Shown piece after piece: positions 1,853 to 3,356 of a stretch of 14,073 nt of DNA; the stretch's first letter is position 1, and each line of letters starts with the position of its first letter. Under the pieces are notes generated by a model. The model did not search any database and was not told the origin of the DNA. It was given only the letters and a program-made list of their open reading frames with translations. Both the position numbers and the translations under genes were made by a program. This DNA comes from a virus (lineage: Duplodnaviria; Heunggongvirae; Uroviricota; Caudoviricetes), in the IMG/VR virus record IMGVR_UViG_2859810971_000003; one strand, written 5' to 3'.

Positions 1853-2111
1853 GGTTCTTTCCACCATCTGAAAAATAATTCTTTAAAATACCTGACATGT
1901 AATACAGAAAAAACACAAAACCATACCTTAAATAAAAACCTGATTATCAAGCAGATATGCATGGATAAACTACAAGACGAGATATAAACCACCCTGCATT
2001 TAAATAAACAATAAACAACATCAGAAAAATAATTCTGCTCTATGGTTTAATTCAAAAATATCATTTATACTTTTCAGAACATCACCAGCAAGGCATAAAC
2101 AAGGAAACTAA

Positions 2112-2447
2112 ATGAAGTGGATTGTGATTGATACAGTTATCCAGCCATCATGCGGAATATCTTTTTCAGTCATATGGAGTAAAATAAAATTAATAATCTG
2201 GTATCAATCGGATGCTTTCTTACCTCCTGAAAGTATATTTACACTGACTCACACAGGCATCATGCTCAATAACAAAGTGCTACCTGTAACCATTTACAAC
2301 GTAGTACCATTCAATAAAACATTCTGGAATTTAATCAAAAACAGCCAGGAATGCCCTACAAATACAGATAACGTATTGAATGAATGCTTTAATAACCGTT
2401 GCACTCTGCAAATATGTCCTTATGGACTAAAACAACAAAGTCCATAA
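2112..2447 (+). CDS. Hypothetical 111-aa protein, AT-rich orphan cargo gene, cysteine-rich C-terminus
   Basis: AAGGA ribosome-binding site 6 nt before the ATG. A 111-codon open frame in DNA of roughly 30% GC is unlikely by chance. Six ATA codons. Four Cys in the last 25 aa. No recognisable family. Confidence 0.45.
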
Positions 2448-2482
2448 GGAGTTTACTCACATCTGACAAAATCAATATAAAC

Positions 2483-2507
2483 AGCCCCTCTGGAGAGGGG
2501 CTGGAGA
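2483..2507 (-). terminator. Intrinsic terminator hairpin (CAGCCCCTC-TGGA-GAGGGGCTG); the U tract is on the minus strand
   Basis: Perfect 9-bp GC-rich stem. On the minus strand it is followed by TTTATATTGATTTT. It lies between convergent ORFs and could act in both directions. Confidence 0.55.
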
Positions 2508-2892
2508 GTGGCGCTATGTGCCATTCCATGGTGCCGGGTGCCTCCCGGTGAATTCAGTACCAGCACCTGAATCCGCGATTATCCCATATACCTACTCGCT
2601 GATTGCCCTCCGCACAGGGGATTCACCATGCCAGTTTCTTTTAACAAACTCCCCGCAAACCAGACAACAGTCAACCGCCTGAATTGTGAAGTATTTAAAA
2701 ATTTCTCCCGCTAACTGATACCCGGCTAACAGTCTGGCGTTTTCTTTTTCAGCAACGGGAAAGCAACAACCACCACACCCGCCACCAGCACACCGTCAGC
2801 CGGCACTGACATTATCCGGCTGCTGCAATGCCATTAACAAAAACAGTAAGCAATCACTTTTTACCGTAACAGGTGATAATCCAGATATGTAT

Positions 2893-3246
2893 CTACCCCA
2901 GATGAGTAATCCGAAGTTCATCCATACCACAGGTCCTGGCTATTCTGTTGTACTCCTGAACAAGAGCAAATAATTCTGAATTAGCAACCATGAACTCATC
3001 GCAAACCCTCTGTATAGCATCACTATTCAGAATAATAACGTCTCTTCCCGAAAGACGATCAGGAGTACAGAACAAAACTGTCAAACGGCTGAAGGCCTTT
3101 GCTCGTGCTGCATTGACTATATCAATACGCTGCCTAAGGATGAAACACCCCGACGCCTCATCAATATTCACTCTACCCACACCATATGAATGATAAATAC
3201 TTAATGCTGAAAAAACCATTAGACCGTATAACAAATACTCAATCAA
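2893..3246 (-). CDS. Hypothetical protein (108 to 117 aa) in the stx-equivalent cargo position; start uncertain (TTG at 3246 or ATG at 3219)
   Basis: Open frame in AT-rich DNA, same orientation as the late operon. Six of eight Arg codons are AGA/AGG and there are three ATA codons, matching the adjacent tRNAs. Hydrophobic N-terminus. No strong ribosome-binding site. Confidence 0.35.
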   Translation of the reverse strand: MIEYLLYGLMVFSALSIYHSYGVGRVNIDEASGCFILRQRIDIVNAARAKAFSRLTVLFCTPDRLSGRDVIILNSDAIQRVCDEFMVANSELFALVQEYNRIARTCGMDELRITHLG

Positions 3247-3356
3247 TACTTAACAGAACTTTTATTTTTGACAAATATATAATATTTTCAACAATATCCT
3301 GAGCCAGGTATATTTCAGTATAAGGCTCTGCCGGAAGGAATCTGGAAGAATGAATA

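Follow-up and report, generated by a model that had tools for sequence, protein, structure and literature searches.

The 14,073-nt sequence of the Caudoviricetes record IMGVR_UViG_2859810971_000003, referred to here as the window, is a lambdoid prophage, Qin-like and degraded, whose late region lies on the minus strand and whose host was likely a Shigella. Between the late antiterminator gene Q and the holin gene it includes an A+T-rich interval (nucleotides 1853 to 3356) that an earlier note, made from the sequence alone, had described as an unrecognised cargo module at the position where Shiga toxin (Stx)-converting phages carry stx. We are highly confident that this interval, which belongs to the Q-to-holin "moron" part of a defective prophage, is a mosaic of recognisable elements and not a single novel cargo. 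Its main contents, the anti-adaptor gene iraL and the small RNA (sRNA) STnc100, were already known, and the residue is one conserved hypothetical gene of 92 codons that is usually left unannotated, named here orf92.

Searches with Pfam, ARAGORN and Rfam confirmed the minus-strand order Q, tRNA(CAU), tRNA-Arg(UCU), A+T-rich interval, an open reading frame (ORF) with a DUF1737 domain, and holin, and this Q-tRNA-holin architecture is of the type found in Stx-converting phages. The base composition was also described correctly: the G+C content is 0.32-0.34 at nucleotides 1800-2400 and 0.37-0.38 at 3000-3450, as compared to about 0.5 in the surrounding DNA. None of the ORFs in the interval matched a Shiga toxin family in Pfam. 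The identities, coordinates, conservation and synteny given below are results of the present analysis; locus numbers preceded by L refer to the DNA regions used for comparison.

The largest ORF of the interval had been counted as one of "two orphan ORFs". It is located on the plus strand and is no orphan, as all of its 111 amino acids are identical to those of IraL from the uropathogenic Escherichia coli (UPEC) strain CFT073 (WP_000871291.1, c1429/ycgW). It scored 162 bits against the NCBIfam model NF007393, "anti-adapter protein IraM" (cut-off 121), with residues 1-110 covering profile positions 1-113 of 114; it shows 62% identity to E. coli K-12 IraM, and over residues 1-78 it can be aligned with the experimental IraM structure, PDB 8twd. 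The gene was experimentally characterised in 2014 by Hryckowian et al. as coding for an RpoS-stabilising RssB anti-adaptor of CFT073 (PMC4045071). IraL co-purified with RssB and in two-hybrid assays bound only its N-terminal domain, deletion of iraL in CFT073 reduced the log-phase half-life of σS from about 5 to 2.5 min, and σS was also lower in an S. sonnei deletion mutant; iraL has its own σ70 promoter, and the matches of iraL and iraM do not overlap (PMC4045071). The levels of iraL rise in a fur mutant and upon a shift to 37°C. The published sequence obtained by 5′ RACE had one match in the window, at 2079-2110 and with one mismatch, where none was expected by chance; the mapped transcription start corresponds to A2079, and a TATACT hexamer is found 7 nt upstream.

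We consider iraL to be the one clearly functional protein gene predicted in the interval, its function being that of the identical CFT073 protein; the binding to RssB and the stabilisation of σS are taken from the literature. The gene would be transcribed from its own σ70 promoter, antisense to a dead late operon, and the product would bind the N-terminal receiver domain of RssB, leaving RssB unable to deliver σS (RpoS) to ClpXP, after which σS would accumulate in growing cells. Because it has its own promoter and is antisense to the late operon, iraL is expected to be independent of Q. This is relevant since insertions of IS200 and IS3 have disabled late transcription and lysis. The presence of iraL would matter for the physiology of the host through a higher level of σS during growth, an effect that has already been described.

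The terminator that had been ascribed to the cargo exists as a G+C-rich hairpin with a 10-bp stem followed by a T-run at 2503-2482 on the minus strand, and it belongs to an sRNA and not to a protein-coding module. The covariance model for STnc100 matched over its full length (positions 1-206 of 206) with 109.9 bits against a gathering threshold of 47 and an E value of 1e-24, and the hairpin forms the stem at the 3′ end of the Rfam model. Compared with CFT073 and E. coli 042, the window copy carries a 1-nt deletion on each side of one stem, which is reduced from 5 to 4 bp and keeps its pairing. The minimum free energy fold was not unusual when compared to shuffled sequences (z = -1.0), and the assignment is therefore based on the covariance model rather than on folding energy. 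An ORF on the opposite strand (2518-2682, plus strand) was rejected as a gene, being an artefact antisense to STnc100. At the same place the Prokaryotic Genome Annotation Pipeline (PGAP) lists a pseudo "hypothetical protein" in 042 (L001 5667-5792) and CFT073 (L003 43270-43395) that is almost certainly an annotation artefact.

Copies of the STnc100 family are transcribed in E. coli EDL933, and one of them was confirmed by Northern blot; EcOnc27/sRNA103, an Hfq-binding sRNA encoded downstream of stx2B, partly overlaps the STnc100 prediction. These reports on transcription and Hfq association concern copies in EDL933 and Sakai. The location of the family downstream of stx2B in Stx2 phages has been reported (PMC12370729). 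The copy in the window would then be an Hfq-type prophage sRNA with its own terminator that converges on iraL. The family can be multicopy in this region: the Q-to-holin region of STEC1585 includes four copies, three of them in tandem with a spacing of about 260 bp (L006 4575-4787 and 6547-7256), and vB_EcoS-640R1 includes two (L009 3469-3662 and 3938-4126).

It has to be weighed at this point whether, in the strain of the window, everything in the interval, even iraL, is inactive debris of a dead prophage, and several observations stand on the side of this reading and thereby weigh against a live iraL. The signs of decay are numerous: IS200 lies behind Q and cuts it off from the late genes, the holin gene has been truncated by IS3, the DUF3927 gene carries a premature stop codon, nanS-p is a truncated and frameshifted stump, and the tRNA-Ile2 gene has lost U33. 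In such a decaying prophage iraL could have lost its function by a regulatory change, and a 1-nt deletion with respect to CFT073 and 042 is indeed found in the -35/spacer region of its promoter, between nucleotides 2049 and 2050. A terminator scan found neither a canonical intrinsic terminator nor a T-run for iraL on the plus strand, and the inverted repeat that covers the stop codon is a possible 3′-end hairpin of its mRNA. iraL and STnc100 converge within 2417-2503, the iraL stop codon lying about 25 nt from the end of the STnc100 match; as the hairpin is not followed by a T-run, iraL transcripts might conceivably read through, antisense to STnc100, DUF3927 and orf92. Expression of iraL and STnc100 in this strain is something we infer. 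On the other side, iraL has an undamaged ORF whose product is identical to the functional protein, its σ70 promoter is independent of late transcription, the exact promoter allele with the 1-nt deletion is common to 163 complete genomes, and STnc100 is full length with paired deletions that preserve its stem. We consider it unlikely that all of this is wreckage.

Comparison with the Stx2a phage Stx2_EH2201 defined which part of the interval occupies the position of stx. The annotated order in this phage is three tRNAs, stx2A, stx2B, an antisense "iraM", yjhS/nanS-p, two small genes and holin, and Rfam places STnc100 at 4698-4909 of the locus, 75 nt after stx2B. The window aligned with Stx2_EH2201 over 3349-3650, which includes the tRNAs (88% identity), and over 1696-2689, which includes STnc100, the iraL-type gene and the start of nanS-p (70%). 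The 659 bp between them (2690-3348) did not align and face 1,368 bp with stx2AB in the phage; no blastn counterpart of stx2AB (L008 3383-4623) was found in the window. Since the block with STnc100 and the iraL-type gene lies downstream of stx2B in the Stx2a phage, these elements are a shared backbone that coexists with stx. The earlier note was right that the stx position holds something other than stx; STnc100, iraL and nanS-p are backbone outside the slot, and only 2690-3348 is equivalent to stx. The real stx-equivalent slot is therefore much narrower than had been assumed, and orf92 and the DUF3927 gene are its sole occupants between the last tRNA-Arg and STnc100.

The second of the "orphan" ORFs did lack a characterised relative, although it had been over-extended. 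The reading of 117 amino acids with a TTG start (2893-3246, minus strand) was rejected, as the comparison of clades, the distant homologues and the AlphaFold2 (AF2) models favour a gene of 92 codons starting with GTG. In the three clades compared (window type, EC581 type and STEC type, the latter from Shiga toxin-producing E. coli) the frame has a GTG start and exactly 92 codons with no insertion or deletion, at 67-72% nucleotide and 60-64% amino acid identity; the EC581 protein is 63% identical. More distant homologues of 91-95 amino acids start at the same position. Upstream of the GTG the frame stays open for no more than 5-31 codons, and a 4-nt insertion/deletion shifts it in STEC1585. The 92-amino-acid form was modelled with a mean predicted local distance difference test (pLDDT) score of 89.1 and a predicted template modelling score of 0.76, as a helical hairpin with two long helices (residues 3-34 and 50-81) joined by a short β-turn, and the 117-amino-acid form gave a pLDDT of 70.5 with residues 1-23 below 50.

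Could conserved non-coding DNA hold this frame open by chance? Of about 1,300 genomes that carry it, nearly all lack a PGAP annotation for it, no family annotation exists for it, and in the window the GTG start is preceded by only a weak GGTG Shine-Dalgarno-like motif. These points are outweighed by the constant length of the frame next to a variable upstream extension, by a ratio of nonsynonymous to synonymous substitution rates (dN/dS) of 0.26-0.27, by an excess of third-position changes (19/19/39, 24/23/43 and 24/18/40), by the 4-13 stop codons in the other two frames, by the homologues that share its start and by the confident AF2 model. In addition, in EC581 PGAP does call the 92-amino-acid protein (WP_001017777.1), behind an AGGAG motif 7 nt upstream. 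A chance frame is therefore very unlikely, and orf92 is a conserved gene subject to purifying selection, one that in standard annotation is mostly either missing or drawn too long.

The function of orf92 is a different matter. Relatives of the 117-amino-acid ORF are few: a search of 5.8 billion proteins gave 17 clusters and one of 1.84 billion gave 22 representatives. Exact forms of the protein are recorded in S. sonnei and S. flexneri, which makes a Shigella origin of the window likely. The ORF matched phrog_2873 with an E value of 2.2e-69 (residues 10-117, over the complete profile of 108 positions), a profile that includes 16 N-terminal residues that the comparison of clades suggests are untranslated. 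Searches of Pfam, NCBIfam, PADLOC and PDB gave no match and the sequence and fold searches returned nothing specific; the best PDB sequence-profile match, GapR/UPF0335, was below threshold (E = 0.055) and was treated as due to chance. Of the two ORFs, which the earlier note would have had to see both matched to well-characterised proteins to be refuted, the larger one is so matched and this one is not. It is a point against describing the interval by known elements that no member of phrog_2873 has a described function and that every database name for these proteins is "hypothetical protein".

Some indication comes from the genomic neighbourhoods. In some STEC prophages the orf92 homologue follows a gene for an AraC-like protein of 241 amino acids (HTH_18, phrog_1450; L004 164-889 and L006 5164-5889), and the gap of 21 nt suggests that they form an operon. 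The phage phiSTEC1575-Stx2k includes an AraC-like copy that is 59% identical. A published name for this neighbour (of the PatE/Psr type) was sought in the literature and no specific link could be established. One distant orf92 homologue is found about 1 kb downstream of a Q-like gene and another beside a PapB-regulated fimbrial operon. Many small helical-hairpin proteins, TraM among them, act as anti-activators. With its fold and the AraC-like neighbour as leads, orf92 might code for a small protein-binding modulator, which we offer as a guess of low confidence. The fuller proposal, that orf92 is a functional lysogenic-conversion gene at the exact stx position of non-Stx lambdoid prophages, coding for a dimerising helical hairpin that binds and modulates a regulator, and systematically missed by PGAP in more than 1,000 E. 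coli and Shigella genomes, is tentative and to our mind rather doubtful. In any case, orf92 is a cheap candidate for studies of prophage morons in Shigella, UPEC and STEC.

The remaining pieces of the interval are remnants. The DUF3927 gene is intact in CFT073 and 042, where it codes for 43 amino acids. Its translation in the window reads VIAYCFC*WHC..., with a 28-amino-acid restart ORF at 2726-2812, and Pfam PF13064 scored 95.6 bits for the CFT073 copy and 53.5 bits for the 28-amino-acid C-terminal fragment of the window. The gene matches phrog_1470 (TciB-like), and the intact ORF of about 43 amino acids is absent from the window. What had been taken for a small protein at 1724-1867 is the truncated, frameshifted 5′ remnant of a nanS-p esterase gene. 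Over nucleotides 1696-1853 the window shares 88.7% identity with the beginning of the SASA esterase gene of STEC1585, whose NanS-p has 654 amino acids with DUF1737 (residues 3-50), SASA and DUF6645 domains. The 47 N-terminal amino acids of DUF1737 remain in the stump, and Pfam did not detect the SASA catalytic domain there; a 1-nt deletion is located at column 1917 of alignment A1 and the rest of the gene has been deleted. The orthologue is annotated by PGAP as an incomplete pseudogene in both 042 and CFT073.

These pieces occur in different combinations. In mEp460, orf92 and DUF3927 are followed by TolA in place of iraL; vB_EcoS-640R1 has iraL and lacks orf92; STEC1585 has TolA, the AraC-like gene, the orf92 homologue, three further STnc100 copies and then an intact nanS-p; and in EC581 orf92 occurs without the other pieces, flanked by a methyltransferase gene and a DUF1883 gene. 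The slot is a recombination mosaic, the pieces of which recombine independently. None of this is rare. The interval was matched in part in 2,633 of 5,426 complete E. coli genomes and over at least 80% of its length in 863; the iraL promoter region was found in 1,438 and the orf92 DNA in 1,314. Roughly one quarter to one half of the complete genomes carry the interval. That 1853-3356 is one self-contained, undescribed virulence or fitness module replacing stx, as its A+T-rich composition, its stx-like place between tRNAs and lysis genes and the lack of an assigned function for orf92 in any library searched had made plausible, deserves hardly any credence and for the interval as a whole is already refuted, being a mosaic of four pieces in which the largest ORF is the characterised IraL, the terminator is that of a curated Rfam sRNA, and the block of both coexists with stx2AB in Stx2a phages. 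What resembled a new cargo, an A+T-rich block with a terminator, resolves to a published protein and a curated sRNA.

Table 1. Features of the interval and of its surroundings in the window.
Feature	Position	Strand	Basis or remarks
Class II (P21-type) holin, 3′ end lost to IS3	1189..1358	-	Pfam Phage_holin_2_1, profile positions 1-44 of 64
nanS-p (SASA sialate O-acetylesterase) 5′ remnant	1724..1867	-	DUF1737 N-terminal domain only, frameshifted
iraL transcription unit	2079..2447 (coding sequence 2112-2447, 111 aa)	+	Antisense to phage late operon
12-bp perfect inverted repeat over iraL stop codon	2417..2450	+	Repeat search
STnc100-family prophage sRNA, full length	2473..2660	-	Rfam RF02076
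STnc100 intrinsic terminator hairpin	2482..2503	-	10-bp perfect stem, 2-nt loop, then TTTATATT
DUF3927 gene, inactivated	2726..2857	-	Stop at codon 8, GAA to TAA, 2836-2834
orf92, 92 aa, GTG start	2893..3171	-	Three-clade comparison; AF2; PGAP orthologue in EC581
tRNA-Arg (UCU)	3357..3433	-	ARAGORN; Rfam 68 bits
tRNA, anticodon CAU, Ile2 type, ileZ-like	3535..3610	-	ARAGORN; Rfam tRNA 63.8 bits; PGAP orthologue tRNA-Ile
IS200 between Q and tRNAs	~3653..4355	-	tnpA within 3716-4264; 5′ RNA STnc490 at 4223-4346
Q late antiterminator, 273 aa	4464..5285	-	Pfam PF03589 Antiterm, 183.7 bits

The genes that frame the interval are listed in Table 1. Read from left to right on the plus strand, the window includes IS3, the cut holin gene, the interval, two tRNAs, IS200, Q, RusA, a DUF968/YdfU protein, Rem, HokD, RelE and RelB, beyond which are found a second IS3, IS1, a fimbrial gene and a split ydeP. 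The orthologues of Q in 042 and CFT073 are annotated as "antitermination protein". Two insertions had been overlooked in the earlier note, namely the IS200 that separates Q from the tRNAs and the IS3 to which the holin gene has lost its 3′ end. The bounds of IS200 are defined by the phage loci L007 and L009, which are free of the insertion and align to 4500-4356 and then from 3652 onward; its 5′ RNA, STnc490, matched Rfam with 146 bits. With its terminal hairpins, this element should block Q-dependent late transcription. An IS200 is found between Q and the tRNAs in CFT073 as well (L003 41700-42300) and is absent from mEp460 and vB_EcoS-640R1; this distribution suggests that the window and CFT073 prophages are remnants of shared descent.

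U33 of the tRNA anticodon loop is nearly universal. In the tRNA-Ile2 gene of the window an A takes its place (nucleotide 3578, column 73 of alignment A1), so that the loop reads CACAUAA as compared to CUCAUAA in CFT073 and 042, and the Rfam score is 63.8 bits versus 72.5 for the orthologues; this combination suggests a decaying tRNA gene. A second tRNA-Arg lies between the two tRNAs in CFT073, and both nucleotides 3434-3534 of the window and the 042 sequence are degenerate and do not form a tRNA there. Homology of the holin gene to CFT073 ends at nucleotide 1189, 46 nt short of the end of the coding sequence, and IS3 reaches approximately nucleotide 1188.

The two IS3 copies (1-1188 and about 8614-9870) are in opposite orientation and bracket the late and early remnant of the prophage. 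The first one appears mutated, as its OrfB ends early (217 instead of 272 amino acids). IS1 (9510-10207) adjoins a fimbrial gene fragment, and ydeP (11345-13622) is split into ORFs of 524 and 208 amino acids instead of forming one frame; it is probably a pseudogene, which fits a decaying, Shigella-like genome. Complete E. coli genomes cover at most 43% of the window, CFT073 being the closest.

Among known systems, the prophage of the CFT073 potB island is the most similar, with Q, IS200, tRNAs, DUF3927, an antisense iraL, the DUF1737 stump and holin, and its iraL locus specifies the identical protein and the same mapped 5′ untranslated region (UTR). The window differs from CFT073 by one mismatch in the iraL 5′ UTR, another just upstream of the start site and the 1-nt deletion in the -35/spacer region, and by having two tRNAs instead of three, the stop codon in DUF3927 and a holin gene cut by IS3. 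IraM of K-12, encoded beside prophage e14, belongs to the same family, NF007393, and is 4 residues shorter than IraL at the C-terminus. IraM is described as the anti-adaptor of Mg2+ starvation (10.1101/2023.01.07.523045). IraM binds both domains of RssB, unlike IraL, which binds only the N-terminal one and acts in unstressed log phase.

Proteins of the phrog_2873/WP_001017777.1 type have the same length and start as orf92; the STEC homologue differs in lying behind the AraC-like gene, which is absent from the window. With respect to the Stx2a phages, the slot of the window occupies the same interval as the stx2AB cassette, from the last tRNA-Arg to STnc100, and shares neither sequence nor family with it. 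STnc100 has the same place in both relative to the iraM-like gene and nanS-p, although in the window it has no stx upstream and carries the paired 1-nt deletions. The iraM-like gene of the Stx2a phage codes for a protein with 75% amino acid identity to IraL and, like iraL, lies antisense in the stretch from STnc100 to nanS-p.

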